DNA of 64,000 nt, taken from NCBI GenBank assembly GCA_008632985.1, contig QPGO01000045.1:310001-374000 (forward strand), read 5' to 3'. Position numbers and translations under genes: made by a program. Below are positions 21,690-52,479 of this stretch, piece by piece. Under the pieces are notes generated by a model. That model did not search any database. It saw only the letters and a program-made list of their open reading frames with translations, and was not told the DNA's origin. Numbering within the stretch: position 1 is the first letter of the stretch; every line of letters starts with the position of its first letter. The stretch comes from Psammoneis japonica. Lineage: Eukaryota.

Positions 21690-21835
21690 GCCTTTCCTGC
21701 TTGTTGCACAAATGCGCCTTGACTTGCACTGAAGTTTTGGCACCAACCGACTTGGCAATGTTGTCTGGATCAATCTTTCCAACTTTCATGGCATCTTGGC
21801 ACTTTCCAACTTCCTCTTCTGTCCACGCCACCCCT
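21690..21835 (-). pseudogene. Myb/SANT-like domain fragment
   Basis: WTEEEVGKCQDAMK...IAKSVGAKTSVQVKAH. Confidence 0.6.
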
Positions 21836-24255: not shown

Positions 24256-24670
24256 CGTTTTACTATGAGCAGTACCTTTTGTTCGGTACGGTCGCTCCGC
24301 TACGTCATTTATCCCATTCAAGTATTGGCCAAGAGTTGCAAGCCTGTACCCGTCATGATTATGGGAGCTCTCATGGGAAAGAAATATCCTCTCAAGAAAT
24401 ATATCAATGTCGTCATGATTGTAGGTGGTGTGGTGCTCTTTATGGGAGGGTGAGTGTGTATAGTGTGGAACAAACAACTACCTATCATCGTGATGTCGTT
24501 GTTGTTGTAGCTGTTTTCTAACACTACCTGCTCTCGTTCTCGTTGCAACCATGTATGTACAGTATTCTACAGTGGTGTTTCCAAGTCGAGTAAAAAAAAG
24601 CAGTGCCGACGAAGATGTCGGTGGTGCATCATCTCAAATGTTTGGTATTCTACTCTTGTTTATCAGTCTC
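24256..24670 (+). pseudogene. Internal fragment of a UAA-family nucleotide-sugar (UDP-galactose) transporter, SLC35B1-like
   Basis: [25 protein letters not shown], then an intron (gtgagt 24450 ... ctacag 24572), then GILLLFISL, after which homology appears to stop. No N- or C-terminus is visible. Confidence 0.8.
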
Positions 24671-27600
24671 GACTATCCGTCGGATCGGTGTTGTCGATGT
24701 TATGGCTAACATGGTCGTATCTCTGTCGTCGACAAAGCCGGCAAGCTCCTGTTGAAGTAGTGGCGTTGCTGAAGGGCATGATTGAAGATGGGGAGCTGGC
24801 ACTACCGCATGGGCTCACCTGTGGTACGAAGCATCTACTTGATGCCGGATGGGCAGAAGCGGATTTTGAAGAAATGGCGGTTGCTTGTGCAATCTTTTTT
24901 GATGGTCTAGTGCAGCTTTTTTCATTTTCTTTGCAGTCTTTGGATCCTGTTGCTTTTTGGCTCGGCTAGGGTTTTGTGATGGTGCAAGATGAAATCTTGA
25001 ATCAGAATTCGGCAGATTCGTTCAGTGGGGCGTATTGACGTGCTGCTTTTTCAAATCAGGCAACGTAAAACTATCTGTTTGATTGTGGTGCTACCTTGCT
25101 GGCAGTCACTTTCTTTTTGCTGGCCGCCACCACTTCTACTGGAAGCAGAATATTCCGAATCATGTGACAGTCGCGTCAAGAGCATTCGGCGAGCGTTGCG
25201 TTGCGTTGCGAAGACCAAATGCTAAAAGAATCTAAGATTGGAGCCCGAAAACGAAAAGACACTGCTGACGCCGCCGGGGAGCAAAGAGCGCAACGACATA
25301 GCGTCTCGGGAGGAGCCGACGTGACCAATTGTTGCTACATCGACAAGTTCGTAAGGCTGGAGAGTCAATCACAACGGTTGCGTATCCAAGACTAGCAGTT
25401 GGGGAAAGCATGTGGCAGTTGCAAGTTCTGAAAGTCCTGCTCGACAAATTGCGTCTAATAGTGATAGTAGCAAGTCTCCAGCACGCGAAAAGAAGCGCAT
25501 CAAGCCAGAGGTTGTCTCATCCGGTAGAAAGGACACCACAATGACTGCATCTGCGATGTTGGCTGAAACTGAACACGGAATTTTCGACGGCGAGTCTGAT
25601 TTTGTCCTGACTCCACCCAATGGGAAGCGAATCGTTTCTGTTCACCCGGACTTAGCCAATCAAATGAAGGAGGTAACAACTTCGCATCGTATGCTGCACT
25701 ACTATCCTGACATTCTATTTTGCCTCACTCGAAAAGTGTTATAAATGTATCTCCCTCATTTCAGCATCAGAAAGATGTGATCAAATCCATGTGGGACAAC
25801 GTTTACTGTGACTTTTCTACGATGTCCGACGATGAAGCCTATGTGGCAAAGGTAGACGGCAATGAAACTTTGGTTTATTCCAACCAATCGCTTGGCGGAT
25901 GTATCCTTGCCAAGTGTGGGACTTGGCAAGTCGCTCCAAGCGATTGTGTTGCTTCATACCTTACTTCATCACCCTTCTTTGAATGTGTCGGGTATCCCTC
26001 TGTTTCGTACGGCGCTTCTCGTTGTCCCAACCAATACCGTACGTATCATACAATCCGGTCGGGTTCTTGCTTTGCTGTGTACGATCTCCGTTCTGACACG
26101 TTGTCTTATTCTTGATCTTGGCGCCACTAGTTGATAAACTGGGAGAGCGAATTCCGAAAGTGGGTAGCGTCTCTCCGGCCCGACACCAACACTTTTAATC
26201 TGAATGACGTAAACAGTTCTTCTCGGGGTAAAACGATCAAAGCTTGTAGCGACAGAGGTGGCGTTCTTCTTATGACTGTGCATGCGTCGTTTTGCTTCTC
26301 TCAAGAAGATCTCCAGGTTGATTTAATTTCTCTATTTGTGAGTAGTTGTTTCAATTACTCTGAAATAGAGAAATTCCCAGGAAGGGGTGAAATTGAATAA
26401 AAAAATTACGAGGAGTCCATGAGCCTTTCTCTGATTATAATCGATTTATTCTCTGCAACACAGCACAGAGCCCTGTCGCCTATCGAGCGCGTGATTTTTT
26501 GAGTTAGTGCTCAAATAAAAACAACAAACAATTGCGACTGCAGCGAAGCCGCAGCCGCTGATAGCTTTAGCGACAGACAAAGCCTGAGAATCCGGCTAGT
26601 GTCGAGCCCTTGCTGTGGTTGTCGTTGTCATCTTGCTGTCGCAAGAGAAAGATCCGAAGAGCATCCACGGATTCCTCGGAGCGGAGAGAAATTTCAAATT
26701 TCGCACCGCTGTTGGTCGTGCTTGCCTCATAGTTCCGTTGAGCAATTTTCATCACCATGGCGACATACTACTGCCTTCACATGAACCGGAAAGGGGAATT
26801 TACCTTTGACGATGATGTCCCCCCTCGTCCCTTGTTCAGGAACCCAGAGACCAGCGCCGTCTATCGCATCGACGACCTTGGAGGCGATGCCGTCTCTGTT
26901 GGTGATAACGGAGACCCTCACGCCGACGACGGTGTGCCCATTGCGCAACCGGAAGATCGCCTTCAAGCTTTTATGGACTATGGCGCGAGTAGCAGGGTAG
27001 ACCTTCAGGAGGCCCGGGCCACACTCATCCCAGAACCTGAATTACTAGCTTCCGGCTCCGATCCCAATCGGCTTGACAATGTCCTAGCCAGGGCCCGTGA
27101 AGGGGGGATTGTCTTTCGAAAGAAAACGAAGGAAATCCAGGCCTTGTTGAAGCTAATCTCATCGGATTCTACTGGCGCTACGAAATCACAAACGTCTTCT
27201 AAGAGAGGCCCCAAGCCTGGGAACAAAGCATTCCTAACAAACCATGGCTTGGAAAGAGTGTTCATTGCACGTAAGCAGCTGCGAGTTCGAAATGATGGCG
27301 AGAAGGCCAAGTACGGGGAGCTTGAAGAGAAGATTGTTTCCTATTGTCAAGGAGACTATGGCCAGGAGTCCAACGGCCTTTCAGGGCCACAAAAGATTCT
27401 CTACAAAGCTATGTTTCAGGAAGTGACAGGTCGGAACAGGGAAACGGGCATGCGAAAGCTACTTCCAGACCATTTATTGGTCATGGCGCAGTTGGCTTGC
27501 CAGCTTGACATGGATGCCAAGGAAGACAACCCCGACGCTTACCCAGTGTTTGCTCGGGACTTTGCGCGCTATTTGATCTTTGTAATCTTTGACCTTGGGG

Positions 27601-28471
27601 AACACAAAATCAGCAAACGGTATAGGACCCTTTGAAGGAAATGAACCTCCCACAACCCGAAGGAAACCCCAAGGACGATACATGGGCGACGAGGAGGTTT
27701 GCGATGTGCTCCTTTATTGGCGCCATCATTGACAAAGGGCCACTAATGCAACATGTTGTGGATATGGCTGTGGACAAAGCCATAGCTACTAGCCCCGCCA
27801 AACCCAACCGCGGTGGTGACTACCCTCCCGGTGTTCTGCCAAAGAATTTTCATCGGTGGCTAGAGAATTCTTATGCTGCAGATGATTTTGCTGGGCTACA
27901 AGGTACTCTTACTCCTATTATGGCTGAGGTTCACGAATTTACAACGATCCAAGTTCCCAGTGAGCGTCACGGTAGTGTTAGACTCACGCTAAAGCCTTGC
28001 GACGAGTTGCGAGTGAAAGATGGCGACAAGTACTACACAGCCCGCGAATCAGACAACCAATTCGTCACGGCGCATGAATCGGTGGAAGAGATCAACAACT
28101 TAGTGCCTTGTGGTGCCACGAACGGTCACGACAAGGACGTCCCGCTTCTCGCGGCTGCTTCGAGTGAAACAATCACAAGTGTCGAAGCCGAGGATACGAA
28201 AGCTACCGACGACGGCGACTCACAGTTCCTTCACAGCATCGAGGGACTTTTGGCACGCCGGCGTAACGGTGAGTTTGACGATCCCACACTGATGTGTCAG
28301 CTGCAGATGCTGTTGGAAGATGGTTGCACACCCAGCCACAAAGAGAACCGCGGCTTTGGTTCCGCCATCGATGGGCTCACAGTAACACCGAGAGGGTTCG
28401 AGCATTCTATTCTATATGCTGAAAAGCGAGCTGACTGCCCTAAGCAGGTGTCCAAGTATTTGCGAGATCAC
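24572..28471 (+). repeat. Large tandem unit 1 (3900 bp; one copy of the 581-bp segment at 25918-26498)
   Basis: Starts GTGGTGTTTCCAAGTCGAG, which recurs at 28472, 34696 and 40346. Confidence 0.95.
25541..26280 (+). pseudogene. ATRX/RAD54L2-like SNF2 ATPase N-terminal fragment (repeated in each unit)
   Basis: Spliced reading LANQMKE|HQKDVIKSMWDN...GGCILA/GLGKSLQ (motif I, frameshifted)...TALLVVPTNT|LINWESEFRKW...GGVLLM. Introns lie at about 25673-25764 and 26039-26130. The fragment ends before the DExH motif. Confidence 0.8.
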
Positions 28472-28609
28472 GTGGTGTTTCCAAGTCGAGTAAAAAAAAG
28501 CAGTGCCGACGAAGATGTCGGTGGTGCATCATCTCAAATGTTTGGTATTCTACTCTTGTTTATCAGTCTCGACTATCCGTCGGATCGGTGTTGTCGATGT
28601 TATGGCTAA
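26757..28609 (+). pseudogene. 5' part of the kinase gene, truncated before the kinase domain and fused to a transporter-derived tail (unit 1)
   Basis: Matches 44275-45989 and continues YLRDHV-VFPSRVKKSSADEDVGGASSQMFGILLLFISL. There is a 1-bp homopolymer frameshift near 27632. Confidence 0.75.
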
Positions 28610-31600
28610 CATGGTCGTATCTCTGTCGTCGACAAAGCCGGCAAGCTCCTGTTGAAGTAGTGGCGTTGCTGAAGGGCATGATTGAAGATGGGGAGCTGGC
28701 ACTACCGCATGGGCTCACCTGTGGTACGAAGCATCTACTTGATGCCGGATGGGCAGAAGCGGATTTTGAAGAAATGGCGGTTGCTTGTGCAATCTTTTTT
28801 GATGGTCTAGTGCAGCTTTTTTCATTTTCTTTGCAGTCTTTGGATCCTGTTGCTTTTTGGCTCGGCTAGGGTTTTGTGATGGTGCAAGATGAAATCTTGA
28901 ATCAGAATTCGGCAGATTCGTTCAGTGGGGCGTATTGACGTGCTGCTTTTTCAAATCAGGCAACGTAAAACTATCTGTTTGATTGTGGTGCTACCTTGCT
29001 GGCAGTCACTTTCTTTTTGCTGGCCGCCACCACTTCTACTGGAAGCAGAATATTCCGAATCATGTGACAGTCGCGTCAAGAGCATTCGGCGAGCGTTGCG
29101 TTGCGTTGCGAAGACCAAATGCTAAAAGAATCTAAGATTGGAGCCCGAAAACGAAAAGACACTGCTGACGCCGCCGGGGAGCAAAGAGCGCAACGACATA
29201 GCGTCTCGGGAGGAGTCCGACGTGACCAATTGTTGCTACATCGACAAGTTCGTAAGGCTGGAGAGTCAATCACAACGGTTGCGTATCCAAGACTAGCAGT
29301 TGGGGAAAGCATGTGGCAGTTGCAAGTTCTGAAAGTCCTGCTCGACAAATTGCGTCTAATAGTGATAGTAGCAAGTCTCCAGCACGCGAAAAGAAGCGCA
29401 TCAAGCCAGAGGTTGTCTCATCCGTAGAAAGGACACCACAATGACTGCATCTGCGATGTTGGCTGAAACTGAACACGGAATTTTCGACGGCGAGTCTGAT
29501 TTTGTCCTGACTCCACCCAATGGGAAGCGAATCGTTTCTGTTCACCCGGACTTAGCCAATCAAATGAAGGAGGTAACAACTTCGCATCGTATGCTGCACT
29601 GCTATCCTGACATTCTATTTTGCCTCACTCGAAAAGTGTTATAAATGTATCTCCCTCATTTCAGCATCAGAAAGATGTGATCAAATCCATGTGGGACAAC
29701 GTTTACTGTGACTTTTCTACGATGTCCGACGATGAAGCCTATGTGGCAAAGGTAGACGGCAATGAAACTTTGGTTTATTCCAACCAATCGCTTGGCGGAT
29801 GTATCCTTGCCAAGTGTGGGACTTGGCAAGTCGCTCCAAGCGATTGTGTTGCTTCATACCTTACTTCATCACCCTTCTTTGAATGTGTCGGGTATCCCTC
29901 TGTTTCGTACGGCGCTTCTCGTTGTCCCAACCAATACCGTACGTATCATACAATCCGGTCGGGTTCTTGCTTTGCAGTGTACGATCTCCGTTCTGACACG
30001 TTGTCTTATTCTTGATCTTGGCGCCACTAGTTGATAAACTGGGAGAGCGAATTCCGAAAGTGGGTAGCGTCTCTCCGGCCCGACACCAACACTTTTAATC
30101 TGAATGACGTAAACAGTTCTTCTCGGGGTAAAACGATCAAAGCTTGTAGCGACAGAGGTGGCGTTCTTCTTATGACTGTGCATGCGTCGTTTTGCTTCTC
30201 TCAAGAAGATCTCCAGGTTGATTTAATTTCTCTATTTGTGAGTAGTTGTTTCAATTACTCTGAAATAGAGAAATTCCCAGGAAGGGGTGAAATTGAATAA
30301 ATAAATTACGAGGAGTCCATGAGCCTTTCTCTGATTATAATCGATTTATTCTCTGCAACACAGCACAGAGCCCTGTCGCCTATCGAGCGCGTGATTTTGG
30401 GACTTGGCAAGTCGCTCCAAGCGATTGTGTTGCTTCATACCTTACTTCATCACCCTTCTTTGAATGTGTCGGGTATCCCTCTGTTTCGTACGGCGCTTCT
30501 CGTTGTCCCAACCAATGCCGCACGCATCATACAATCCGGTCGGGTTCTTGCTTTGCTGTGTACGATCTCCGTTCTGACACGTTGTCTTATTCTTGATCTT
30601 GGCGCCACCAGTTGATAAACTGGGAGAGCGAATTCCGAAAGTGGGTAGCGTCTCTCCGGCCCGACACCAACACTTTTAATCTGAATGACGCAAACAGTTC
30701 TTCTCGGGGTAAAACGATCAAAGCTTGTAGCGACAGAGGTGGCGTTCTTCTTGTGACTGTGCATGCGTCGTTTTGCTTCTCTCAAGAAGATCTCCAGGTT
30801 GATTTAATTTCTCTATTTGTGAGCAGTTGTTTCAATTACTCTGAAATAGAGAAATTCCCAGGAAGGGGTGAAATTGAACAAATAAATTGCGAGGAGTCCA
30901 TGAGCCTTTCTCTGATTGTAATCGATTTGTTCTCTGCAACACAGCACAGAGCCCTGTCGCCTGTCGAGCGCGTGATTTGGGACTTGGCAAGTCGCTCCAA
31001 GCGATTGTGTTGCTTCATACCTTGCTTCATCACCCTTCTTTGAATGTGTCGGGCATCCCTCTGTTTCGTACGGCGCTTCTCGTTGTCCCAACCAATGCCG
31101 CACGCATCACACAATCCGGTTGGGTTCTTGCTTTGCTGTGTGCGATCTCCGTTCTGACACGTTGTCTCATTCTTGATCTTGGCGCCACTGGTTGATAAAC
31201 TGGGAGAGCGAATTCCGAAAGTGGGTGGCGTCTCTCCGGCCCGACACCAACACTTTTAATCTGAATGACGTGAACAGTTCTTCTCGGGGTAAAACGATCA
31301 AAGCTTGTAGCGACAGAGGTGGCGTTCTTCTCATGACTGTGCATGCGTCGTTTTGCTTCTCTCAAGAAGATCTCCAGGTTGATTTAATTTCTCTGTTTGT
31401 GAGCAGTTGTTTCAATTGCCCTGAAATGGAGAAATCCCCAGGAAGGGGTGAAATTGAATGAACAAACCATGAGGAGTCCATGAGCCTTTCTCTGATTGTG
31501 ATCGATTTGTTCTCTGCAACACAGCACAGAGCCCTGTCGCCTGTCGAGCGCGTGATTTTGGGACTTGGCAAGTCGCTCCAAGCGATTGTGTTGCTTCACA

Positions 31601-34600
31601 CCTTACTTCATCACCCTTCTTTGAATGTGTCGGGCATCCCTCTGTTTCGCACGGCGCTTCTCGTTGTCCCAACCAATGCCGTGCGCATCATGCAATCCGG
31701 TCGGGTTCTTGCTTTGCTGTGTACGATCTCCGTTCTGACACGTTGTCTTGTTCTTGATCTTGGCGCCACCAGTTGATAAACTGGGAGAGCGAATTCCGAA
31801 AGTGGGCAGCGTCTCTCCGGCCCGACACCAACACTTTTAATCTGAATGACGCAAACAGTTCTTCTCGGGGTAAAACGATCAAAGCTTGTAGCGACAGAGG
31901 TGGCGTTCTTCTCACGACTGTGCATGCGTCATTTTGCTTCTCTCAAGAAGATCTCCAGGTTGATTTAATTTCTCTGTTTGTGAGCAGTTGTTTCAATTGC
32001 TCTGAAACAGAGAAATTCCCAGGAAGGGGTGAAATTGAACAAACAAACCACGAGGAGTCCATGAGCCTTTCTCTGATTACAATCGATTTGTTCTCTGCAA
32101 CACAGCACAGAGCCCTGTCGCCTGTCGAGCGCGTGATTTTGGGACTTGGCAAGTCGCTCCAAGCGATTGTGTTGCTTCACACCTTGCTTCATCACCCTTC
32201 TTTGAATGTGTCGGGTGTCCCTCTGTTTCGTACGGCGCTTCTCGTTGTCCCAACCAATGCCGCACGTATCATACAATCCGGTCGGGTTCTTGCTTTGCTG
32301 TGTACGATCTCCGTTCTGACACGTTGTCTTGTTCTTGATCTTGGCGCCACTGGTTGACAAGCTGGGAGAGCGAATTCCGAAAGTGGGCAGCGTCTCTCCG
32401 GCCCGACACCAACACTTTTAATCTGAATGACGCAAACAGTTCTTCTCGGGGTAAAACGATCAAAGCTTGTAGCGACAGAGGTGGCGTTCTTCTTATGACT
32501 GTGCATGCGTCGTTTTGCTTCTCTCAAGAAGATCTCCAGGTTGATTTAATTTCTCTATTTGTGAGTAGTTGTTTCAATTACTCTGAAATAGAGAAATTCC
32601 CAGGAAGGGGTGAAATTGAATAAATAAATTACGAGGAGTCCATGAGCCTTTCTCTGATTATAATCGATTTATTCTCTGCAACACAGCACAGAGCCCTGTC
32701 GCCTATCGAGCGCGTGATTTTTTGAGTTAGTGCTCAAATAAAAACAACAAACAATTGCGACTGCAGCGAAGCCGCAGCCGCTGATAGCTTTAGCGACAGA
32801 CAAAGCCTGAGAATCCGGCTAGTGTCGAGCCCTTGCTGTGGTTGTCGTTGTCATCTTGCTGTCGCAAGAGAAAGATCCGAAGAGCATCCACGGATTCCTC
32901 GGAGCGGAGAGAAATTTCAAATTTCGCACCGCTGTTGGTCGTGCTTGCCTCATAGTTCCGTTGAGCAATTTTCATCACCATGGCGACATACTACTGCCTT
33001 CACATGAACCGGAAAGGGGAATTTACCTTTGACGATGATGTCCCCCCTCGTCCCTTGTTCAGGAACCCAGAGACCAGCGCCGTCTATCGCATCGACGACC
33101 TTGGAGGCGATGCCGTCTCTGTTGGTGATAACGGAGACCCTCACGCCGACGACGGTGTGCCCATTGCGCAACCGGAAGATCGCCTTCAAGCTTTTATGGA
33201 CTATGGCGCGAGTAGCAGGGTAGACCTTCAGGAGGCCCGGGCCACACTCATCCCAGAACCTGAATTACTAGCTTCCGGCTCCGATCCCAATCGGCTTGAC
33301 AATGTCCTAGCCAGGGCCCGTGAAGGGGGGATTGTCTTTCGAAAGAAAACGAAGGAAATCCAGGCCTTGTTGAAGCTAATCTCATCGGATTCTACTGGCG
33401 CTACGAAATCACAAACGTCTTCTAAGAGAGGCCCCAAGCCTGGGAACAAAGCATTCCTAACAAACCATGGCTTGGAAAGAGTGTTCATTGCACGTAAGCA
33501 GCTGCGAGTTCGAAATGATGGCGAGAAGGCCAAGTACGGGGAGCTTGAAGAGAAGATTGTTTCCTATTGTCAAGGAGACTATGGCCAGGAGTCCAACGGC
33601 CTTTCAGGGCCACAAAAGATTCTCTACAAAGCTATGTTTCAGGAAGTGACAGGTCGGAACAGGGAAACGGGCATGCGAAAGCTACTTCCAGACCATTTAT
33701 TGGTCATGGCGCAGTTGGCTTGCCAGCTTGACATGGATGCCAAGGAAGACAACCCCGACGCTTACCCAGTGTTTGCTCGGGACTTTGCGCGCTATTTGAT
33801 CTTTGTAATCTTTGACCTTGGGGAACACAAAATCAGCAAACGGTATAGGACCCTTTTGAAGGAAATGAACCTCCCACAACCCGAAGGAAACCCCAAGGAC
33901 GATACATGGGCGACGAGGAGGTTTGCGATGTGCTCCTTTATTGGCGCCATCATTGACAAAGGGCCACTAATGCAACATGTTGTGGATATGGCTGTGGACA
34001 AAGCCATAGCTACTAGCCCGCCAAACCCAACCGCGGTGGTGACTACCCTCCCGGTGTTCTGCCAAAGAATTTTCATCGGTGGCTAGAGAATTCTTATGCT
34101 GCAGATGATTTTGCTGGGCTACAAGGTACTCTTACTCCTATTATGGCTGAGGTTCACGAATTTACAACGATCCAAGTTCCCAGTGAGCGTCACGGTAGTG
34201 TTAGACTCACGCTAAAGCCTTGCGACGAGTTGCGAGTGAAAGATGGCGACAAGTACTACACAGCCCGCGAATCAGACAACCAATTCGTCACGGGCGCATG
34301 AATCGGTGGAAGAGATCAACAACTTAGTGCCTTGTGGTGCCACGAACGGTCACGACAAGGACGTCCCGCTTCTCGCGGCTGCTTCGAGTGAAACAATCAC
34401 AAGTGTCGAAGCCGAGGATACGAAAGCTACCGACGACGGCGACTCACAGTTCCTTCACAGCATCGAGGGACTTTTGGCACGCCGGCGTAACGGTGAGTTT
34501 GACGATCCCACACTGATGTGTCAGCTGCAGATGCTGTTGGAAGATGGTTGCACACCCAGCCACAAAGAGAACCGCGGCTTTGGTTCCGCCATCGATGGGC

Positions 34601-34695
34601 TCACAGTAACACCGAGAGGGTTCGAGCATTCTATTCTATATGCTGAAAAGCGAGCTGACTGCCCTAAGCAGGTGTCCAAGTATTTGCGAGATCAC
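28472..34695 (+). repeat. Large tandem unit 2 (6224 bp = 3900 + 4x581)
   Basis: Near-identical to unit 1 apart from the internal array. Confidence 0.95.
29818..32721 (+). repeat. 581-bp tandem array, 5 copies
   Basis: GGGACTTGGCAAGTCGCTCC at 29818, 30399, 30979, 31560 and 32141. Confidence 0.95.
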
Positions 34696-34833
34696 GTGGT
34701 GTTTCCAAGTCGAGTAAAAAAAAGCAGTGCCGACGAAGATGTCGGTGGTGCATCATCTCAAATGTTTGGTATTCTACTCTTGTTTATCAGTCTCGACTAT
34801 CCGTCGGATCGGTGTTGTCGATGTTATGGCTAA
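32980..34833 (+). pseudogene. Truncated chimeric kinase 5' copy (unit 2)
   Basis: Same sequence as the other units, with 1-bp indels near 34020 and 34292. Confidence 0.75.
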
Positions 34834-37800
34834 CATGGTCGTATCTCTGTCGTCGACAAAGCCGGCAAGCTCCTGTTGAAGTAGTGGCGTTGCTGAAGGG
34901 CATGATTGAAGATGGGGAGCTGGCACTACCGCATGGGCTCACCTGTGGTACGAAGCATCTACTTGATGCCGGATGGGCAGAAGCGGATTTTGAAGAAATG
35001 GCGGTTGCTTGTGCAATCTTTTTTGATGGTCTAGTGCAGCTTTTTTCATTTTCTTTGCAGTCTTTGGATCCTGTTGCTTTTTTGGCTCGGCTAGGGTTTT
35101 GTGATGGTGCAAGATGAAATCTTGAATCAGAATTCGGCAGATTCGTTCAGTGGGGCGTATTGACGTGCTGCTTTTTCAAATCAGGCAACGTAAAACTATC
35201 TGTTTGATTGTGGTGCTACCTTGCTGGCAGTCACTTTCTTTTTGCTGGCCGCCACCACTTCTACTGGAAGCAGAATATTCCGAATCATGTGACAGTCGCG
35301 TCAAGAGCATTCGGCGAGCGTTGCGTTGCGTTGCGTTGCGAAGACCAAATGCTAAAAGAATCTAAGATTGGAGCCCGAAAACGAAAAGACACTGCTGACG
35401 CCGCCGGGGAGCAAAGAGCGCAACGACATAGCGTCTCGGGAGGAGTCCGACGTGACCAATTGTTGCTACATCGACAAGTTCGTAAGGCTGGAGAGTCAAT
35501 CACAACGGTTGCGTATCCAAGACTAGCAGTTGGGGAAAGCATGTGGCAGTTGCAAGTTCTGAAAGTCCTGCTCGACAAATTGCGTCTAATAGTGATAGTA
35601 GCAAGTCTCCAGCACGCGAAAAGAAGCGCATCAAGCCAGAGGTTGTCTCATCCGGTAGAAAGGACACCACAATGACTGCATCTGCGATGTTGGCTGAAAC
35701 TGAACACGGAATTTTCGACGGCGAGTCTGATTTTGTCCTGACTCCACCCAATGGGAAGCGAATCGTTTCTGTTCACCCGGACTTAGCCAATCAAATGAAG
35801 GAGGTAACAACTTCGCATCGTATGCTGCACTGCTATCCTGACATTCTATTTTGCCTCACTCGAAAAGTGTTATAAATGTATCTCCCTCATTTCAGCATCA
35901 GAAAGATGTGATCAAATCCATGTGGGACAACGTTTACTGTGACTTTTCTACGATGTCCGACGATGAAGCCTATGTGGCAAAGGTAGACGGCAATGAAACT
36001 TTGGTTTATTCCAACCAATCGCTTGGCGGATGTATCCTTGCCAAGTGTGGGACTTGGCAAGTCGCTCCAAGCGATTGTGTTGCTTCATACCTTACTTCAT
36101 CACCCTTCTTTGAATGTGTCGGGTATCCCTCTGTTTCGTACGGCGCTTCTCGTTGTCCCAACCAATACCGTACGTATCATACAATCCGGTCGGGTTCTTG
36201 CTTTGCTGTGTACGATCTCCGTTCTGACACGTTGTCTTATTCTTGATCTTGGCGCCACTAGTTGATAAACTGGGAGAGCGAATTCCGAAAGTGGGTAGCG
36301 TCTCTCCGGCCCGACACCAACACTTTTAATCTGAATGACGTAAACAGTTCTTCTCGGGGTAAAACGATCAAAGCTTGTAGCGACAGAGGTGGCGTTCTTC
36401 TTATGACTGTGCATGCGTCGTTTTGCTTCTCTCAAGAAGATCTCCAGGTTGATTTAATTTCTCTATTTGTGAGTAGTTGTTTCAATTACTCTGAAATAGA
36501 GAAATTCCCAGGAAGGGGTGAAATTGAATAAATAAATTACGAGGAGTCCATGAGCCTTTCTCTGATTATAATCGATTTATTCTCTGCAACACAGCACAGA
36601 GCCCTGTCGCCTATCGAGCGCGTGATTTTGGGACTTGGCAAGTCGCTCCAAGCGATTGTGTTGCTTCATACCTTACTTCATCACCCTTCTTTGAATGTGT
36701 CGGGTGTCCCTCTGTTTCGTACGGCGCTTCTCGTTGTCCCAACCAATGCCGTGCGCATCGTGCAATCCGGTCGGGTTCTTGCTTTGCTGTGTGCGATCTC
36801 CGTTCTGACACGTTGTCTTGTTCTTGATCTTGGCGCCACCAGTTGATAAACTGGGAGAGCGAATTCCGAAAGTGGGTAGCGTCTCTCCGGCCCGACACCA
36901 ACACTTTTAATCTGAATGACGCAAACAGTTCTTCTCGGGGTAAAACGATCAAAGCTTGTAGCGACAGAGGTGGCGTTCTTCTTGTGACTGTGCATGCGTC
37001 GTTTTGCTTCTCTCAAGAAGATCTCCAGGTTGATTTAATTTCTCTGTTTGTGAGCAGTTGTTTCAATTACCCTGAAATAGAGAAATCCCCAGGAAGGGGT
37101 GAAATTGAGTGAACAAATTGCGAGGAGTCCATGAGCCTTTCTCTGATTGTAGTCGATTTGTTCTCTGCAACACAGCACAGAGCCCTGTCGCCTGTCGAGC
37201 GCGTGATTTTGGGACTTGGCAAGTCGCTCCAAGCGATTGTGTTGCTTCGTGCCTCACTTCATCACCCTTCTTTGAATGTGTCGGGTGTCCCTCTGTTTCG
37301 CACGGCGCTTCTCGTTGTCCCAACCAATGCCGCACGCATCATACAATCCGGTCGGGTTCTTGCTTTGCTGTGTGCGATCTCCGTTCTGACACGTTGTCTT
37401 GTTCTTGATCTTGGCGCCACTAGTTGACAAACTGGGAGAGCGAATTCCGAAAGTGGGCAGCGTCTCTCCGGCCCGACACCAACACTTTTAATCTGAATGA
37501 CGCAAACAGTTCTTCTCGGGGTAAAACGATCAAAGCTTGTAGCGACAGAGGTGGCGTTCTTCTTATGACTGTGCATGCGTCGTTTTGCTTCTCTCAAGAA
37601 GATCTCCAGGTTGATTTAATTTCTCCATTTGTGAGTGGTTGTTTCAACCACCCTGAAATAGAGAAATTCCCAGGAAGGGGTGAAATTGAACAAATAAATT
37701 ACGAGGAGTCCATGAGCCTTTCTCTGATTGTGGTCGATTTGTTCTCTGCAACACAGCACAGAGCCCTGTCGCCCATCGAGCGCGTGATTTTGGGACTTGG

Positions 37801-40345
37801 CAAGTCGCTCCAAGCGATTGTGTTGCTTCACACCTTGCTTCATCACCCTTCTTTGAATGTGTCGGGTGTCCCTCTGTTTCGCACGGCGCTTCTCGTTGTC
37901 CCAACCAATGCCGCACGCATCACACAATCCGGTCGGGTTCTTGCTTTGCTGTGTGCGATCTCCGTTCTGACACGTTGTCTTGTTCTTGATCTTGGCGCCA
38001 CCAGTTGATAAACTGGGAGAGCGAATTCCGAAAGTGGGCAGCGTCTCTCCGGCCCGACACCAACACTTTTAATCTGAATGACGTAAACAGTTCTTCTCGG
38101 GGTAAAACGATCAAAGCTTGTAGCGACAGAGGTGGCGTTCTTCTTATGACTGTGCATGCGTCGTTTTGCTTCTCTCAAGAAGATCTCCAGGTTGATTTAA
38201 TTTCTCTATTTGTGAGTAGTTGTTTCAATTACTCTGAAATAGAGAAATTCCCAGGAAGGGGTGAAATTGAATAAATAAATTACGAGGAGTCCATGAGCCT
38301 TTCTCTGATTATAATCGATTTATTCTCTGCAACACAGCACAGAGCCCTGTCGCCTATCGAGCGCGTGATTTTTTGAGTTAGTGCTCAAATAAAAACAACA
38401 AACAATTGCGACTGCAGCGAAGCCGCAGCCGCTGATAGCTTTAGCGACAGACAAAGCCTGAGAATCCGGCTAGTGTCGAGCCCTTGCTGTGGTTGTCGTT
38501 GTCATCTTGCTGTCGCAAGAGAAAGATCCGAAGAGCATCCACGGATTCCTCGGAGCGGAGAGAAATTTCAAATTTCGCACCGCTGTTGGTCGTGCTTGCC
38601 TCATAGTTCCGTTGAGCAATTTTCATCACCATGGCGACATACTACTGCCTTCACATGAACCGGAAAGGGGAATTTACCTTTGACGATGATGTCCCCCCTC
38701 GTCCCTTGTTCAGGAACCAGAGACCAGCGCCGTCTATCGCATCGACGACCTTGGAGGCGATGCCGTCTCTGTTGGTGATAACGGAGACCCTCACGCCGAC
38801 GACGGTGTGCCCATTGCGCAACCGGAAGATCGCCTTCAAGCTTTTATGGACTATGGCGCGAGTAGCAGGGTAGACCTTCAGGAGGCCCGGGCCACACTCA
38901 TCCCAGAACCTGAATTACTAGCTTCCGGCTCCGATCCCAATCGGCTTGACAATGTCCTAGCCAGGGCCCGTGAAGGGGGGATTGTCTTTCGAAAGAAAAC
39001 GAAGGAAATCCAGGCCTTGTTGAAGCTAATCTCATCGGATTCTACTGGCGCTACGAAATCACAAACGTCTTCTAAGAGAGGCCCCAAGCCTGGGAACAAA
39101 GCATTCCTAACAAACCATGGCTTGGAAAGAGTGTTCATTGCACGTAAGCAGCTGCGAGTTCGAAATGATGGCGAGAAGGCCAAGTACGGGGAGCTTGAAG
39201 AGAAGATTGTTTCCTATTGTCAAGGAGACTATGGCCAGGAGTCCAACGGCCTTTCAGGGCCACAAAAGATTCTCTACAAAGCTATGTTTCAGGAAGTGAC
39301 AGGTCGGAACAGGGAAACGGGCATGCGAAAGCTACTTCCAGACCATTTATTGGTCATGGCGCAGTTGGCTTGCCAGCTTGACATGGATGCCAAGGAAGAC
39401 AACCCCGACGCTTACCCAGTGTTTGCTCGGGACTTTGCGCGCTATTTGATCTTTGTAATCTTTGACCTTGGGGAACACAAAATCAGCAAACGGTATAGGA
39501 CCCTTTTGAAGGAAATGAACCTCCCACAACCCGAAGGAAACCCCAAGGACGATACATGGGCGACGCGGAGGTTTGCGATGTGCTCCTTTATTGGCGCCAT
39601 CATTGACAAAGGGCCACTAATGCAACATGTTGTGGATATGGCTGTGGACAAAGCCATAGCTACTAGCCCCGCCAAACCCAACCGCGGTGGTGACTACCCT
39701 CCCGGTGTTCTGCCAAAGAATTTTCATCGGTGGCTAGAGAATTCTTATGCTGCAGATGATTTTGCTGGGCTACAAGGTACTCTTACTCCTATTATGGCTG
39801 AGGTTCACGAATTTACAACGATCCAAGTTCCCAGTGAGCGTCACGGTAGTGTTAGACTCACGCTAAAGCCTTGCGACGAGTTGCGAGTGAAAGATGGCGA
39901 CAAGTACTACACAGCCCGCGAATCAGACAACCAATTCGTCACGGCGCATGAATCGGTGGAAGAGATCAACAACTTAGTGCCTTGTGGTGCCACGAACGGT
40001 CACGACAAGGACGTCCCGCTTCTCGCGGCTGCTTCGAGTGAAACAATCACAAGTGTCGAAGCCGAGGATACGAAAGCTACCGACGACGGCGACTCACAGT
40101 TCCTTCACAGCATCGAGGGACTTTTGGCACGCAGGCGTAACGGTGAGTTTGACGATCCCACACTGATGTGTCAGCTGCAGATGCTGTTGGAAGATGGTTG
40201 CACACCCAGCCACAAAGAGAACCGCGGCTTTGGTTCCGCCATCGATGGGCTCACAGTAACACCGAGAGGGTTCGAGCATTCTATTCTATATGCTGAAAAG
40301 CGAGCTGACTGCCCTAAGCAGGTGTCCAAGTATTTGCGAGATCAC
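34696..40345 (+). repeat. Large tandem unit 3 (5650 bp)
   Basis: Near-identical repeat carrying a 4-copy internal array. Confidence 0.95.
36049..38372 (+). repeat. 581-bp tandem array, 4 copies
   Basis: Monomers start at 36049, 36630, 37211 and 37792. Confidence 0.95.
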
Positions 40346-40483
40346 GTGGTGTTTCCAAGTCGAGTAAAAAAAAGCAGTGCCGACGAAGATGTCGGTGGTG
40401 CATCATCTCAAATGTTTGGTATTCTACTCTTGTTTATCAGTCTCGACTATCCGTCGGATCGGTGTTGTCGATGTTATGGCTAA
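38631..40483 (+). pseudogene. Truncated chimeric kinase 5' copy (unit 3)
   Basis: ORF 38807-40483 is open for 558 aa. A 1-bp deletion near 38717 separates it from the ATG at 38631. Confidence 0.75.
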
Positions 40484-43400
40484 CATGGTCGTATCTCTGT
40501 CGTCGACAAAGCCGGCAAGCTCCTGTTGAAGTAGTGGCGTTGCTGAAGGGCATGATTGAAGATGGGGAGCTGGCACTACCGCATGGGCTCACCTGTGGTA
40601 CGAAGCATCTACTTGATGCCGGATGGGCAGAAGCGGATTTTGAAGAAATGGCGGTTGCTTGTGCAATCTTTTTTGATGGTCTAGTGCAGCTTTTTTCATT
40701 TTCTTTGCAGTCTTTGGATCCTGTTGCTTTTTGGCTCGGCTAGGGTTTTGTGATGGTGCAAGATGAAATCTTGAATCAGAATTCGGCAGATTCGTTCAGT
40801 GGGGCGTATTGACGTGCTGCTTTTTCAAATCAGGCAACGTAAAACTATCTGTTTGATTGTGGTGCTACCTTGCTGGCAGTCACTTTCTTTTTGCTGGCCG
40901 CCACCACTTCTACTGGAAGCAGAATATTCCGAATCATGTGACAGTCGCGTCAAGAGCATTCGGCGAGCGTTGCGTTGCGTTGCGAAGACCAAATGCTAAA
41001 AGAATCTAAGATTGGAGCCCGAAAACGAAAAGACACTGCTGACGCCGCCGGGGAGCAAAGAGCGCAACGACATAGCGTCTCGGGAGGAGTCCGACGTGAC
41101 CAATTGTTGCTACATCGACAAGTTCGTAAGGCTGGAGAGTCAATCACAACGGTTGCGTATCCAAGACTAGCAGTTGGGGAAAGCATGTGGCAGTTGCAAG
41201 TTCTGAAAGTCCTGCTCGACAAATTGCGTCTAATAGTGATAGTAGCAAGTCTCCAGCACGCGAAAAGAAGCGCATCAAGCCAGAGGTTGTCTCATCCGGT
41301 AGAAAGGACACCACAATGACTGCATCTGCGATGTTGGCTGAAACTGAACACGGAATTTTCGACGGCGAGTCTGATTTTGTCCTGACTCCACCCAATGGGA
41401 AGCGAATCGTTTCTGTTCACCCGGACTTAGCCAATCAAATGAAGGAGGTAACAACTTCGCATCGTATGCTGCACTGCTATCCTGACATTCTATTTTGCCT
41501 CACTCGAAAAGTGTTATAAATGTATCTCCCTCATTTCAGCATCAGAAAGATGTGATCAAATCCATGTGGGACAACGTTTACTGTGACTTTTCTACGATGT
41601 CCGACGATGAAGCCTATGTGGCAAAGGTAGACGGCAATGAAACTTTGGTTTATTCCAACCAATCGCTTGGCGGATGTATCCTTGCCAAGTGTGGGACTTG
41701 GCAAGTCGCTCCAAGCGATTGTGTTGCTTCATACCTTACTTCATCACCCTTCTTTGAATGTGTCGGGTATCCCTCTGTTTCGTACGGCGCTTCTCGTTGT
41801 CCCAACCAATACCGTACGTATCATACAATCCGGTCGGGTTCTTGCTTTGCTGTGTACGATCTCCGTTCTGACACGTTGTCTTATTCTTGATCTTGGCGCC
41901 ACTAGTTGATAAACTGGGAGAGCGAATTCCGAAAGTGGGTAGCGTCTCTCCGGCCCGACACCAACACTTTTAATCTGAATGACGTAAACAGTTCTTCTCG
42001 GGGTAAAACGATCAAAGCTTGTAGCGACAGAGGTGGCGTTCTTCTTATGACTGTGCATGCGTCGTTTTGCTTCTCTCAAGAAGATCTCCAGGTTGATTTA
42101 ATTTCTCTATTTGTGAGTAGTTGTTTCAATTACTCTGAAATAGAGAAATTCCCAGGAAGGGGTGAAATTGAATAAATAAATTACGAGGAGTCCATGAGCC
42201 TTTCTCTGATTATAATCGATTTATTCTCTGCAACACAGCACAGAGCCCTGTCGCCTATCGAGCGCGTGATTTTGGGACTTGGCAAGTCGCTCCAAGCGAT
42301 TGTGTTGCTTCATACCTTACTTCATCACCCTTCTTTGAATGTGTCGGGTATCCCTCTGTTTCGCACGGCGCTTCTCGTTGTCCCAACCAATGCCGCACGC
42401 ATCACACAATCTGGTCGGGTTCTTGCTTTGCTGTGTGCGATCTCCGTTCTGACACGTTGTCTTATTCTTGATCTTGGCGCCACCAGTTGATAAACTGGGA
42501 GAGCGAATTCCGAAAGTGGGCAGCGTCTCTCCGGCCCGACACCAACACTTTTAATCTGAATGACGCAAACAGTTCTTCTCGGGGTAAAACGATCAAAGCT
42601 TGTAGCGACAGAGGTGGCGTTCTTCTTATGACTGTGCATGCGTCGTTTTGCTTCTCTCAAGAAGATCTCCAGGTTGATTTAATTTCTCTGTTTGTGAGCA
42701 GTTGTTTCAATTACCCTGAAACAGAGAAATCCCCAGGAAGGGGTGAAATTGAACAAATAAATTGCGAGGAGTCCATGAGCCTTTCTCTGATTACAATCGA
42801 TTTGTTCTCTGCAACACAGCACAGAGCCCTGTCGCCCATCGAGCGCATGATTTTGGGACTTGGCAAGTCGCTCCAAGCGATTGTGTTGCTTCATGCCTTG
42901 CTTCATCACCCTTCTTTGAATGTGTCGGGTGTCCCTCTGTTTCGTGCGGCGCTTCTCGTTGTCCCAACCAATGCCGCACGCATCGTGCAATCCGGTCGGG
43001 TTCTTGCTTTGCTGTGTGCGATCTCCGTTCTGACACGTTGTCTTGTTCTTGATCTTGGCGCCACCAGTTGACAAACTGGGAGAGCGAATTCCGAAAGTGG
43101 GTGGCGTCTCTCCGGCCCGACACCAACACTTTTAATCTGAATGACGCAAACAGTTCTTCTCGGGGTAAAACGATCAAAGCTTGTAGCGACAGAGGTGGCG
43201 TTCTTCTTATGACTGTGCATGCGTCGTTTTGCTTCTCTCAAGAAGATCTCCAGGTTGATTTAATTTCTCTGTTTGTGAGCAGTTGTTTCAATTACTCTGA
43301 AACAGAGAAATTCCCAGGAAGGGGTGAAATTGAACAAATAAATTACGAGGAGTCCATGAGCCTTTCTCTGATTATAATCGATTTGTTCTCTGCAACACAG

Positions 43401-45989
43401 CACAGAGCCCTGTCGCCTGTCGAGCGCGTGATTTTGGGACTTGGCAAGTCGCTCCAAGCGATTGTGTTGCTTCACACCTTGCTTCATCACCCTTCTTTGA
43501 ATGTGTCGGGTGTCCCTCTGTTTCGCACGGCGCTTCTCGTTGTCCCAACCAATGCCGCACGTATCACACAATCCGGTCGGGTTCTTGCTTTGCTGTGTGC
43601 GATCTCCGTTCTGACACGTTGTCTTGTTCTTGATCTTGGCGCCACCAGTTGACAAACTGGGAGAGCGAATTCCGAAAGTGGGCAGCGTCTCTCCGGCCCG
43701 ACACCAACACTTTTAATCTGAATGACGTAAACAGTTCTTCTCGGGGTAAAACGATCAAAGCTTGTAGCGACAGAGGTGGCGTTCTTCTTATGACTGTGCA
43801 TGCGTCGTTTTGCTTCTCTCAAGAAGATCTCCAGGTTGATTTAATTTCTCTATTTGTGAGTAGTTGTTTCAATTACTCTGAAATAGAGAAATTCCCAGGA
43901 AGGGGTGAAATTGAATAAATAAATTACGAGGAGTCCATGAGCCTTTCTCTGATTATAATCGATTTATTCTCTGCAACACAGCACAGAGCCCTGTCGCCTA
44001 TCGAGCGCGTGATTTTTTGAGTTAGTGCTCAAATAAAAACAACAAACAATTGCGACTGCAGCGAAGCCGCAGCCGCTGATAGCTTTAGCGACAGACAAAG
44101 CCTGAGAATCCGGCTAGTGTCGAGCCCTTGCTGTGGTTGTCGTTGTCATCTTGCTGTCGCAAGAGAAAGATCCGAAGAGCATCCACGGATTCCTCGGAGC
44201 GGAGAGAAATTTCAAATTTCGCACCGCTGTTGGTCGTGCTTGCCTCATAGTTCCGTTGAGCAATTTTCATCACCATGGCGACATACTACTGCCTTCACAT
44301 GAACCGGAAAGGGGAATTTACCTTTGACGATGATGTCCCCCCTCGTCCCTTGTTCAGGAACCCAGAGACCAGCGCCGTCTATCGCATCGACGACCTTGGA
44401 GGCGATGCCGTCTCTGTTGGTGATAACGGAGACCCTCACGCCGACGACGGTGTGCCCATTGCGCAACCGGAAGATCGCCTTCAAGCTTTTATGGACTATG
44501 GCGCGAGTAGCAGGGTAGACCTTCAGGAGGCCCGGGCCACACTCATCCCAGAACCTGAATTACTAGCTTCCGGCTCCGATCCCAATCGGCTTGACAATGT
44601 CCTAGCCAGGGCCCGTGAAGGGGGGATTGTCTTTCGAAAGAAAACGAAGGAAATCCAGGCCTTGTTGAAGCTAATCTCATCGGATTCTACTGGCGCTACG
44701 AAATCACAAACGTCTTCTAAGAGAGGCCCCAAGCCTGGGAACAAAGCATTCCTAACAAACCATGGCTTGGAAAGAGTGTTCATTGCACGTAAGCAGCTGC
44801 GAGTTCGAAATGATGGCGAGAAGGCCAAGTACGGGGAGCTTGAAGAGAAGATTGTTTCCTATTGTCAAGGAGACTATGGCCAGGAGTCCAACGGCCTTTC
44901 AGGGCCACAAAAGATTCTCTACAAAGCTATGTTTCAGGAAGTGACAGGTCGGAACAGGGAAACGGGCATGCGAAAGCTACTTCCAGACCATTTATTGGTC
45001 ATGGCGCAGTTGGCTTGCCAGCTTGACATGGATGCCAAGGAAGACAACCCCGACGCTTACCCAGTGTTTGCTCGGGACTTTGCGCGCTATTTGATCTTTG
45101 TAATCTTTGACCTTGGGGAACACAAAATCAGCAAACGGTATAGGACCCTTTTGAAGGAAATGAACCTCCCACAACCCGAAGGAAACCCCAAGGACGATAC
45201 ATGGGCGACGAGGAGGTTTGCGATGTGCTCCTTTATTGGCGCCATCATTGACAAAGGGCCACTAATGCAACATGTTGTGGATATGGCTGTGGACAAAGCC
45301 ATAGCTACTAGCCCCGCCAAACCCAACCGCGGTGGTGACTACCCTCCCGGTGTTCTGCCAAAGAATTTTCATCGGTGGCTAGAGAATTCTTATGCTGCAG
45401 ATGATTTTGCTGGGCTACAAGGTACTCTTACTCCTATTATGGCTGAGGTTCACGAATTTACAACGATCCAAGTTCCCAGTGAGCGTCACGGTAGTGTTAG
45501 ACTCACGCTAAAGCCTTGCGACGAGTTGCGAGTGAAAGATGGCGACAAGTACTACACAGCCCGCGAATCAGACAACCAATTCGTCACGGCGCATGAATCG
45601 GTGGAAGAGATCAACAACTTAGTGCTGTGGTGCACGAACGGTCACGACAAGGACGTCCCGCTTCTCGCGGCTGCTTCGAGTGAAACAATACAAGTGTCGA
45701 AGCCGAGGATACGAAAGCTACCGACGACGGCGACTCACAGTTCCTTCACAGCATCGAGGGACTTTTGGCACGCCGGCGTAACGGTGAGTTTGACGATCCC
45801 ACACTGATGTGTCAGCTGCAGATGCTGTTGGAAGATGGTTGCACACCCAGCCACAAAGAGAACCGCGGCTTTGGTTCCGCCATCGATGGGCTCACAGTAA
45901 CACCGAGAGGGTTCGAGCATTCTATTCTATATGCTGAAAAGCGAGCTGACTGCCCTAAGCAGGTGTCCAAGTATTTGCGAGATCACGTG
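40346..45989 (+). repeat. Large tandem unit 4 (about 5640 bp), running into the unique 3' part of the kinase
   Basis: Ends GATCACGTG|ATTCCTCTG instead of GATCACGTG|GTGTTTCC. Confidence 0.95.
41693..44016 (+). repeat. 581-bp tandem array, 4 copies
   Basis: Monomers start at 41693, 42274, 42855 and 43436. Confidence 0.95.
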
Positions 45990-47155: not shown

Positions 47156-47269
47156 AACTAGCGATAAGCGTAAAGGACCTCCGTAAAACTAGTGACAGTG
47201 AAAACACTTGTGCTACAGTCGTACAGTGATAAGCAGATCTGCCATCGCTGTCGCGCCATCGTCTAAGAT

Positions 47270-48040
47270 GTGGTCTGCCTGTTTTCCGCACACTGTCTGC
47301 ATTGTGAGGATCCATGGATGGCGAGCATCACGCCGACACTCGCCCCTGATCTGCAACGTTCATCTCAAGACAATGCAGGTCACAGAAAAGAAATGCAACA
47401 GCATGCCATGAAACACAACCTTTGCAAGGCAGCACCCTGGACAAATGGCTGGACCCACCAGGCAGGGAAATCACCACACAGCAGCAGCAGGAGGAGGGTG
47501 GGTGAGGAAGCAGCCGAGCCCCCCCCAGCGGCACAGCAGGGCATGTGCAATGATCCATTGAGTCTTCAACAGAACAATGTCAATGACAGTTTCCATCAAA
47601 TCCAAATCTTGCTCATCAATCAAGTCTTGAACCAAAGAGTGACTCCACCAATCAACAAATGGCCAAACACCAAACAAGTCAGAGCAGCAGAGCTCTGCTG
47701 CTGGCAAGCCACCATGCTGCTGAATCTGTCAAACAGGGAGGACAGTCACCATGGCAGCAAAATGGAGCAGCAGCATCCTGCTGGAGCAAACAATGCCTCC
47801 ATGACCATGCTGCTCTGTGCCCTGGAAAAGAGCCTGCTGGACAAAGAGAACATTTGGCAGGTGCGAGCATCAAATGACACACAAATCTTGGTCACTCTGT
47901 GCACAAAGCATTGTTGGAAGATCCTGCATGCATGCCAATCTTGTGTGCTTGGTGGTGGTGCTGTTGTTGTTGTTGTTGGTGGTGGCGGCGGCGGCGGTGG
48001 TGGCGTTGTTGTTGTTGGCACTGTTGTTGCTGTGCTGCTG

Positions 48041-48072
<32 letters not shown>

Positions 48073-52240: not shown

Positions 52241-52479
52241 TTCTTGTCTATCCATTAGTGCTGAGCGAAGCAGATGGTTTGGTTTCGACTACCGCCAAGG
52301 ACCACATTGATACGTAGGCCCTACATGCAAGAAGAGCCGCAAGAAAAAAACGACTCGAACCTACTCTGAAATGATAGAAGAAGTGTAATAGTCTATTGGT
52401 AAGCCATTATTATGAATGTAGATGAACAACAATAGAATATAGTAGGAGAGAATCGATAGATAGCTAATTCAGAATCGCT

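Follow-up and report, generated by a model that had tools for sequence, protein, structure and literature searches.

Local hypermutation of TpA dinucleotides, most likely by DNA adenine deamination, in a diatom-like nuclear genome

To date there is a single report of programmed A:T>G:C hypermutation of DNA, a preprint on the chlorarachniophyte Bigelowiella natans (Mettrop et al., bioRxiv 2026, 10.64898/2026.01.13.699255). In B. natans, TpA is converted to TpG or CpA by mutations that arise de novo: among 302 new mutations found with Illumina sequencing in mutation-accumulation lines, 231 lay in two integrated viral regions; with a single exception these were A>G or T>C changes at TpA, which arose there at a rate of ~6e-7 per site and generation (10.64898/2026.01.13.699255). 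The genome also contains 124 clusters that are depleted in TpA and enriched in CpA+TpG. An ADAT2-like DNA adenine deaminase is proposed, though unproven, as the enzyme, and activity on DNA has been reported for TadA/ADAT2-ADAT3 in Trypanosoma and amphioxus (cited in 10.64898/2026.01.13.699255). Here we analyse a stretch of 64,000 nucleotides from Psammoneis japonica (GenBank assembly GCA_008632985.1, contig QPGO01000045.1, positions 310,001 to 374,000 of the forward strand; hereafter the window, in whose numbering positions are given), which holds tandem arrays of a 581-bp monomer and long domains nearly devoid of TA. We consider it likely that the window records locally restricted TpA hypermutation, with DNA adenine deamination as the most plausible chemistry, in a diatom-like nuclear genome. 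A search of the literature found no report of TpA hypermutation in diatoms, and the words "diatom", "stramenopile" and "tandem" do not occur in the text of the B. natans preprint, supplements aside (10.64898/2026.01.13.699255).

The arrays are embedded in a larger tandem repeat, laid out as follows.

24572..45989, forward strand: higher-order tandem repeat with a 3.9-kb unit, about 5.5 units, ~99.9% identical outside the 581-bp arrays
25917..26497, forward strand: single clean monomer of unit 1, taken as the reference state, with 29 TA and 33 CG
29817..32720, forward strand: array A, five monomers, changed zone 30517-32433
36048..38371, forward strand: array B, four monomers, changed zone 36706-38039
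41692..44015, forward strand: array C, four monomers, changed zone 42364-43683

The monomer occurs 14 times in the window, with 1, 5, 4 and 4 copies in successive 3.9-kb units (starts at 25917; 29817, 30398, 30978, 31559 and 32140; 36048, 36629, 37210 and 37791; 41692, 42273, 42854 and 43435). Tandem Repeats Finder (TRF) missed the 581-bp period because the longest period that it tests is 500. The four clean copies, which are the single monomer and the first copy of each array (25917, 29817, 36048 and 41692), are 0-2 nt apart in pairwise comparison. Outside the arrays, the only differences among the four 3.9-kb units are three substitutions, of which one is at a TA, together with an indel of 5 bp and a few of 1 bp.

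The substitution spectrum was scored in the ten interior copies against the clean copy, so that the 29 TA sites of the monomer yield 290 cells. The interior copies hold 196 differences, and 163 of them fall at ancestral TpA positions, divided between A>G (82) and T>C (81). Another 18 are A:T>G:C changes outside TpA, 15 of them at most 2 nt from a TA; altogether, A:T>G:C makes up 181 of the 196 differences, with 163 of the 181 at TpA. The others are five CpG transitions and ten differences at column 486, a position at which it is the reference copy that deviates. Conversion has reached 25 of the 29 TA dinucleotides in at least one interior copy, and the 290 ancestral cells now read TA in 127 cases, TG in 82, CA in 81 and CG in none, which puts the converted fraction at 56% (163/290). 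Expressed per A or T base, A:T>G:C changes number 163/580 within TA and 18/2610 elsewhere (odds ratio 56, p = 3e-107). The CA and TG outcomes are interleaved a few bases apart, and a site in identical context is resolved differently between copies. As controls, none of the 116 TA sites of the clean copies and one of the 456 TA sites in the flanks of the 3.9-kb units are changed, a contrast with the interiors that is one of relative counts rather than of per-generation rates. Each array also retains unchanged margins, of 658-700 bp on the left and 287-332 bp on the right, and the 3′ part of the last copies is clean too.

TA is the ancestral state at these sites because it alone is one step from both CA and TG, and because CG is absent. 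The absence of CG from all 290 cells implies in addition that a converted site is no longer a target. The counts support polarised A:T>G:C transitions that affect TpA on either strand and are locally confined.

The arrays have a history that can be partly read from their shared changes. Arrays B and C have 11 of 13 changes in common in their last copies, and seven changes are common to all three last copies. Between arrays, second and middle copies are set apart by 21-23 private changes, some of them at a TA that one copy resolved to CA and the other to TG. The changes common to positional counterparts mean that the arrays were partly converted before the 3.9-kb units duplicated; after that duplication the arrays kept changing independently while their flanks stayed ~99.9% identical. 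The clean edges of the arrays were either truly spared or repaired by gene conversion from clean units in the course of concerted evolution. Indeed, concerted evolution of the 3.9-kb units is evident and could alone account for the clean first copy and the clean tail of the last one, and together with the 7-11 changes common to last copies it speaks for ordinary evolution, be it neutral divergence with gene conversion at the edges, GC-biased gene conversion or selection against TA. Neither neutral drift nor GC-biased conversion, however, concentrates 83% of changes in a single dinucleotide (odds ratio 56), and we judge ordinary evolution to be a highly improbable source of the pattern. GC-biased gene conversion and selection against TA were both rejected on the spectrum.

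A preliminary description of this locus, made from the sequence letters, agrees in large part with these results. It had claimed that interior copies differ mainly at TA, which the alignment of all 14 monomers bears out; that the single copy and the first copies of the arrays keep the ancestral sequence; that the direction is A:T to G:C on either strand; that the process is the reverse of fungal repeat-induced point mutation (RIP), as follows from a loss of TpA and a gain of CpA/TpG; and that it was caught in progress, as arrays that were partly converted and then diverged independently indicate. The enrichment of A to G at TpA that it had offered as a check is pronounced. The clean 3′ part of the last copies is a refinement of that description.

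The arrays are not the only part of the window in which TA has been lost. Four domains, none with an assigned strand, are depleted in TA.

1..3468, no strand: TA-depleted, CpG-poor, CA/TG-rich domain, with 9 TA in 3468 bp, continuing past the window start
7028..23581, no strand: TA-depleted domain of 16.5 kb, with 46 TA and 476 CG and a sharp right border at 23582
47265..52248, no strand: TA-depleted domain with 13 TA and 42 CG, the lowest CpG of the four
59136..62347, no strand: TA-depleted domain with 14 TA and 57 CG

Together these domains make up 28,218 bp, or 44% of the window. They contain 2.9 TA per kb compared with 40.3 in the rest of the window, 24.8 CG compared with 55.4, and 216 CA+TG compared with 143, such that the combined loss of TA and CG (68 per kb) approximately equals the gain of CA+TG (74 per kb). 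Observed/expected ratios within the domains are 0.00-0.10 for TA, 1.6-2.2 for CA+TG and 0.05-0.8 for CG; the loss of CpG differs among the domains, while TA is at its floor in all of them. Dinucleotide profiles show that the borders are sharp, to within tens of bases. The dinucleotides AT, AA and TT are not depleted in the TA-poor domains, a further point against ordinary evolution. Photoproducts of ultraviolet (UV) light at TA were also considered as a cause and rejected, as they would have no domain specificity.

A consequence for coding potential is that long but meaningless open frames fill the depleted domains, as TAA and TAG are lost to the process and no stop codon is gained from it. 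Pfam scans of 35 frames from the depleted and unit regions matched FGGY, 7tm_3 and protein kinase families, and Pfam scans of the window's frames found no deaminase gene within the window. The following features allow depleted sequence to be compared with its unconverted counterparts.

17013..18872, reverse strand: glycerol-kinase (FGGY) relic in a depleted domain (FGGY_N, E 4.6e-51; FGGY_C, E 1.5e-31)
18979..19596, no strand: partial duplicate of 18047-18670 at 83% identity and an offset of 932 bp, just upstream of the FGGY relic
22214..23573, reverse strand: old inverted partial copy of the left part of the 3.9-kb unit (24921-25673), inside a depleted domain
54564..56402, forward strand: SulP sulfate-permease gene, the normal-TA contrast, with 3.4% Tyr and 76 TA

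The frame of the FGGY relic is open and contains no Tyr in 599 residues, compared with 6-11 Tyr in each of eight homologues. In all five columns where at least four of the eight homologues have Tyr, the relic reads Cys or His, encoded by TGY and CAY codons. Selection against TA cannot account for such a loss of invariant Tyr from a conserved enzyme. The duplicate beside the relic differs from its partner by 98 mismatches, among them 14 adjacent double mismatches of CA versus TG, and by ordinary substitutions and indels too; the 14 double mismatches indicate that one set of pyrimidine-purine (YpR) sites was resolved independently after the duplication. In the inverted copy, 10 of 13 TA sites of the normal copy read CA or TG, and 14 of its 28 CG sites read TG or CA. 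The depleted domains therefore derive from sequence of normal TA content, as is evident from the Tyr-free relic, the converted inverted copy and the independently resolved duplicates.

The genes also bear on the identity of the host. The best named matches of the FGGY relic are diatoms (Odontella at 58%, and Eucampia), and every named match among the 120 matches listed for the SulP permease is a diatom, at 51-62% identity. These matches make a diatom that lacks close relatives among sequenced species the most likely source of the window. A frame resembling a G-protein-coupled receptor (7tm_3, 19622-20455) adjoins the glycerol-kinase relic in the same TA-free domain. With the FGGY relic and the 7tm_3 frame both in depleted DNA, these domains contain host-type genes and not mobile DNA alone.

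Short dispersed repeats of 83-89% identity join the depleted domains (1-224 and 9516-9744; 1620-1711 and 15539-15630; 14168-14250 and 60909-60990), and are possibly relics of mobile elements. The first of these pairs includes three CA-versus-TG double mismatches. Between depleted domains lies an island of 3.6 kb (3469-7027) with normal TA and CpG, sharp borders and no long frame. It has an internal repeat about 1 kb apart (4620-4785 and 5641-5795); a search for terminal repeats around the island found none, and a young insertion is thus not demonstrated. The most CpG-poor of the TA-free domains contains a (TGG)n-like microsatellite of ~180 bp (47950-48148), and not a single TA occurs in the 1-kb bin 48001-49000.

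These observations also bear on what is being targeted. The preliminary description had called the process repeat-targeted, but the 3.9-kb repeats are ~99.9% identical and nonetheless untouched, and the TA-free domains hold host-type gene relics, with short dispersed repeats as their only repeats; because the 3.9-kb repeats are spared, repeat-directed targeting is unproven. Nor does its statement that no equivalent had been described hold, given that the text of the 2026 preprint shows the same signature in B. natans (10.64898/2026.01.13.699255).

Sequence context ties the young arrays to the old domains. In the arrays, the hit rate depends on the base 3′ of the edited A, being 0.44 for TAC, 0.46 for TAT, 0.25 for TAG and 0.09 for TAA (TAY versus TAR, p = 4e-13, with Y a pyrimidine, R a purine and A counted on whichever strand it stands). 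Among the TAs that survive in the old domains, TTAA is enriched most, followed by CTAA and CTAG, and ATAC and ATAT survive at zero. Young arrays and old domains thus reflect one process with the same preference for TAY over TAR.

CpG behaves similarly but far more slowly. CpG transitions are raised in the array interiors (5/330 versus 0/776, p = 0.002), although only ~1.5% of CpG cells in the arrays are changed compared with 56% of TA cells. This invites an alternative in which it is the thymine of TpA that is modified by a TET/JBP-type enzyme, to 5-hydroxymethyluracil (5hmU) or 5-formyluracil (5fU), and mispairs with G to give T>C. 5-Formyluracil is mutagenic towards T>C. TpA is self-complementary, and hence T-directed and A-directed chemistry would be equally strand-symmetric, as in the 82 to 81 split; moreover, TA and CG are both YpR palindromes that are lost together, and a single enzyme class acting also on 5-methylcytosine (5mC) could link the CpG loss to that of TA. 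On the other hand, the loss of CpG is more simply put down to ordinary 5mC decay in silenced DNA, and a T-directed reading implies a preference for R-T-A; the sequence alone cannot separate the two. Evidence of such a modification in diatoms did not come up, although no search was aimed at it. We regard the thymine route as unlikely, though not negligible. The simplest reading of the joint loss is that a fast process at TA and a slower decay of CpG operate in the same, presumably methylated, DNA.

A key question is whether the converted letters are real. Three public sequencing runs (X1, X2 and X3) come from one sample, which may be the assembly's own source. Contigs of X1 have k-mer depths of ~60-170; over 360-516 nt they agree with the TA-free stretch in every letter or in all but one, and they match the 3.9-kb unit too. 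At 22831-22861, 22163, 23829 and 24627, some X1 contigs, with about half of the summed depth, have TA in place of the window's TG or CA; these could represent a second haplotype or a less-converted paralogue, that is, polymorphic hypermutation. X1 also departs from the window at CpG, CpA or TpG sites (20033, 20444, 20783, 21859, 21982 and 23026), some at full depth, which reflects either CpG polymorphism between read set and assembly or consensus errors at methylated CpG. With CpG-site letters of its own and TA in places, X1 is not a mere copy of the assembly, and the TA-free sequence is present in an apparently independent, deep read set. The contig depths are unusable as copy numbers, with summed values of ~139-250 for unit flanks and ~110-165 for unique DNA. 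X2 has no cover over 19700-23700, a blank that is no evidence of silence, and X3 contributed no matching contig.

In an artefactual scenario, a modified TpA would be misread strand-specifically and resolved by majority consensus to CA or TG, the true DNA still being TA. A strand-majority consensus of a misread base would likewise never give CG, so the absence of CG alone does not decide the matter; homopolymer indels between units point to a long-read assembly, and the TA-free stretch is present in runs of one sample only. Interleaved CA and TG with differing outcomes in identical context nevertheless fit poorly with either strand-majority or context-fixed miscalls, reading frames are intact and there is no excess of indels at changed sites. 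The old duplicates, with their ordinary substitutions and indels, give the depleted sequence a real evolutionary age, and high-depth X1 contigs carry the same TA-free sequence. In B. natans, moreover, the text of the preprint proves the same signature real by Illumina sequencing (10.64898/2026.01.13.699255). We therefore hold an artefact to be quite improbable.

Several points nonetheless weigh against local hypermutation as we interpret it. Local hypermutation does not by itself account for the escape of the first copy, of the tail of the last copy and of the 3.9-kb units. No viral or transposon domain was found by Pfam in the 35 frames of the depleted and unit regions, whereas the targets in B. 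natans are viral. The records give no library type for X1, so that its support is not proven orthogonal; of the words sampled from the changed zone it contains only 31%, and X1 contigs do not individually confirm the per-copy variants of the arrays. Finally, the 1-bp homopolymer indels between units are what a long-read assembly with residual errors would show.

The 3.9-kb unit appears to be transcribed, which is relevant both to its content and to a possible RNA-level origin of the changes. Three stretches with intron-like borders are skipped by X2 contigs.

26039..26130, forward strand: 92-nt GT..AG stretch in the monomer (columns 123-214), skipped by X2 contigs, intron-like
25671..25762, forward strand: GT..AG stretch of 92 nt that X2 contigs skip, probably a second intron in the transcript of the unit
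24449..24561, forward strand: GT..AG stretch of 113 nt that one X2 contig skips, probably an intron

The skipping looks like that of spliced transcripts of the unit, although X2 is not on record as RNA, nor is any RNA run listed as containing the sequence. Without its 92-nt stretch, the monomer is 489 nt long (581 - 92), equal to 163 codons, and one frame of this spliced form resembles the segment of an SNF2-type ATPase around motifs I-Ia. The exon pieces give weak SNF2-related Pfam matches at adjacent profile positions (26-61, E 0.27; 63-110, E 0.007), below the cut-off. The GTA of the 5′ splice site is altered in all ten interior copies, to GCA in eight and GTG in two, and the 3′ AG is destroyed in two. 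At the start of the monomer, the SNF2-like frame slips by one base in a G run (25900-25917), and one X1 contig has an extra A after 25910 (depth 68 of 198). The slip could indicate a frameshifted gene copy, another copy elsewhere or a residual assembly error in the homopolymer. Unit 3 has the long frame of the unit intact (38690-40483, 597 aa), and in units 1, 2 and 4 it is split by 1-bp differences in short homopolymers, which may be assembly errors rather than real frameshifts; a T that is absent from unit 1 at 27630 is present in X1 and X2 contigs (region 26498-28471). For the 597-aa frame, a search among proteins of near length gave no homologue at E <= 0.001, and there was no match to a Pfam family.

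An apparently transcribed and spliced unit would suit a scenario in which repeat-derived double-stranded RNA is hyperedited by an ADAR-type enzyme and written back to DNA by reverse transcription or RNA-templated repair, and a U 5′ of the edited A is preferred by ADAR as well, according to the Discussion of the preprint (10.64898/2026.01.13.699255). Such a route would, however, require both RNA strands to be written into one DNA, because both A>G and T>C occur in one and the same monomer, 4 bp apart. Every copy is 581 bp long and retains the 92-nt intron, and the copies are thus not retrocopies; the changes, moreover, stand in genomic sequence and in X1 contigs, not in RNA alone. ADARs favour G first as the 3′ neighbour, unlike the order C = T > G > A seen here, and to our knowledge they are a metazoan family that does not occur outside animals. 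We give this route very little credence.

In our preferred interpretation, DNA hypermutation at TpA, a local mutational process turns 5′-TA-3′ into CA or TG, an A:T>G:C change that strikes both strands equally and is strongest at TAY. Prolonged exposure has stripped the depleted domains of almost all their TA and of a varying part of their CpG, both turned into CA/TG, and these domains now carry dead gene relics with open frames; the interiors of the three young 581-bp arrays, with 56% of TA cells converted, are at an intermediate stage. The most likely chemistry would be the deamination of A to inosine (I), read as G, in DNA by a TadA/ADAT2-type deaminase directed to particular chromatin. The natural ADAT target, A34, follows U33 and thus stands in a 5′-UA context; we know of no targeting of TadA/ADAT to chromatin domains. 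The spectrum, its polarity, the sequence context and the domain structure are seen directly in the DNA; the enzyme, its choice of target and any role in defence are what we infer from that record.

A wider and more speculative proposal is that diatoms, and perhaps the stramenopile-alveolate-rhizarian assemblage, might possess a chromatin-guided DNA adenine-deaminating system that irreversibly erases TpA, TAY first, from silenced DNA, with decay of methylated CpG helping to drive both YpR palindromes to CA/TG, and with arrays entered from the inside. We offer this as a possibility that is, on present evidence, doubtful. An implication of chromatin-guided deamination, if true, is that islands of live genes would stand amid dead, TA-free DNA in a mosaic genome, and this locus would serve as a natural reporter of the process in action.

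A second and far more advanced case in a diatom-like genome would show that the process is not confined to one alga and, if confirmed, that much of a genome can be remodelled by it, as in the 44% of this window. The signature is simple and searchable: it consists of a bimodal TA observed/expected ratio, sharp borders, Tyr-free open frames and duplicates that differ by CA-versus-TG double mismatches. The TAY context and the co-occurring loss of CpG are new constraints for finding the enzyme, and the half-converted arrays beside untouched flanks offer a compact locus for tests of rate, chromatin state and enzyme. There is also a hazard for annotation, as depleted domains yield long spurious frames and dead genes that look intact.

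Finally, we compare the locus with known systems. The likeness to B. natans, as far as the text of the preprint describes it, is close: changes are A>G or T>C almost solely at TpA, on both strands and in bounded regions with background neighbours, and in the long term there are clusters depleted in TpA and enriched in CpA+TpG. The differences are that the best matches are diatoms here and the host is a chlorarachniophyte there; that TA observed/expected is 0.00-0.10 over 28 kb here, compared with a Rho of 0.45 in a nucleocytoplasmic large DNA virus (NCLDV) region there; that array interiors and domains with host-type gene relics are affected here, and integrated viral DNA there; that the loss of CpG and the TAY context are not reported in the preprint's text; and that de novo mutations were observed there, whereas the process here is known from genomic sequence alone (10.64898/2026.01.13.699255).

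With fungal RIP the locus shares local transitions at one dinucleotide, sharp borders, the killing of genes and a fossil dinucleotide bias. RIP, however, changes C>T at CpA and so makes TpA, and creates stop codons, whereas here TpA is destroyed, CpA/TpG are made and stops are removed; and RIP is triggered by duplication and hits all copies, whereas the single monomer, the first copies and the 3.9-kb repeats have been spared here. ADAR hyperediting is similar in its A>G changes, its preference for U on the 5′ side and its repeat-derived substrates, and differs in that here both-strand changes are fixed in the DNA of one copy with another 3′ preference. Methylation-driven decay of CpG produces the same loss of CpG to TpG/CpA as is seen in these domains and, slightly raised, in the array interiors, but it cannot yield the loss of TA and is much slower here than the TA process. 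TadA/ADAT2-ADAT3 enzymes are reported, in the preprint's text, to deaminate both A and C, which could fit the joint loss of TA and CG (10.64898/2026.01.13.699255). What is new in this locus is the lineage, the extreme end state over nearly half of the window, the TAY context, the joint loss of CpG and a half-converted locus.

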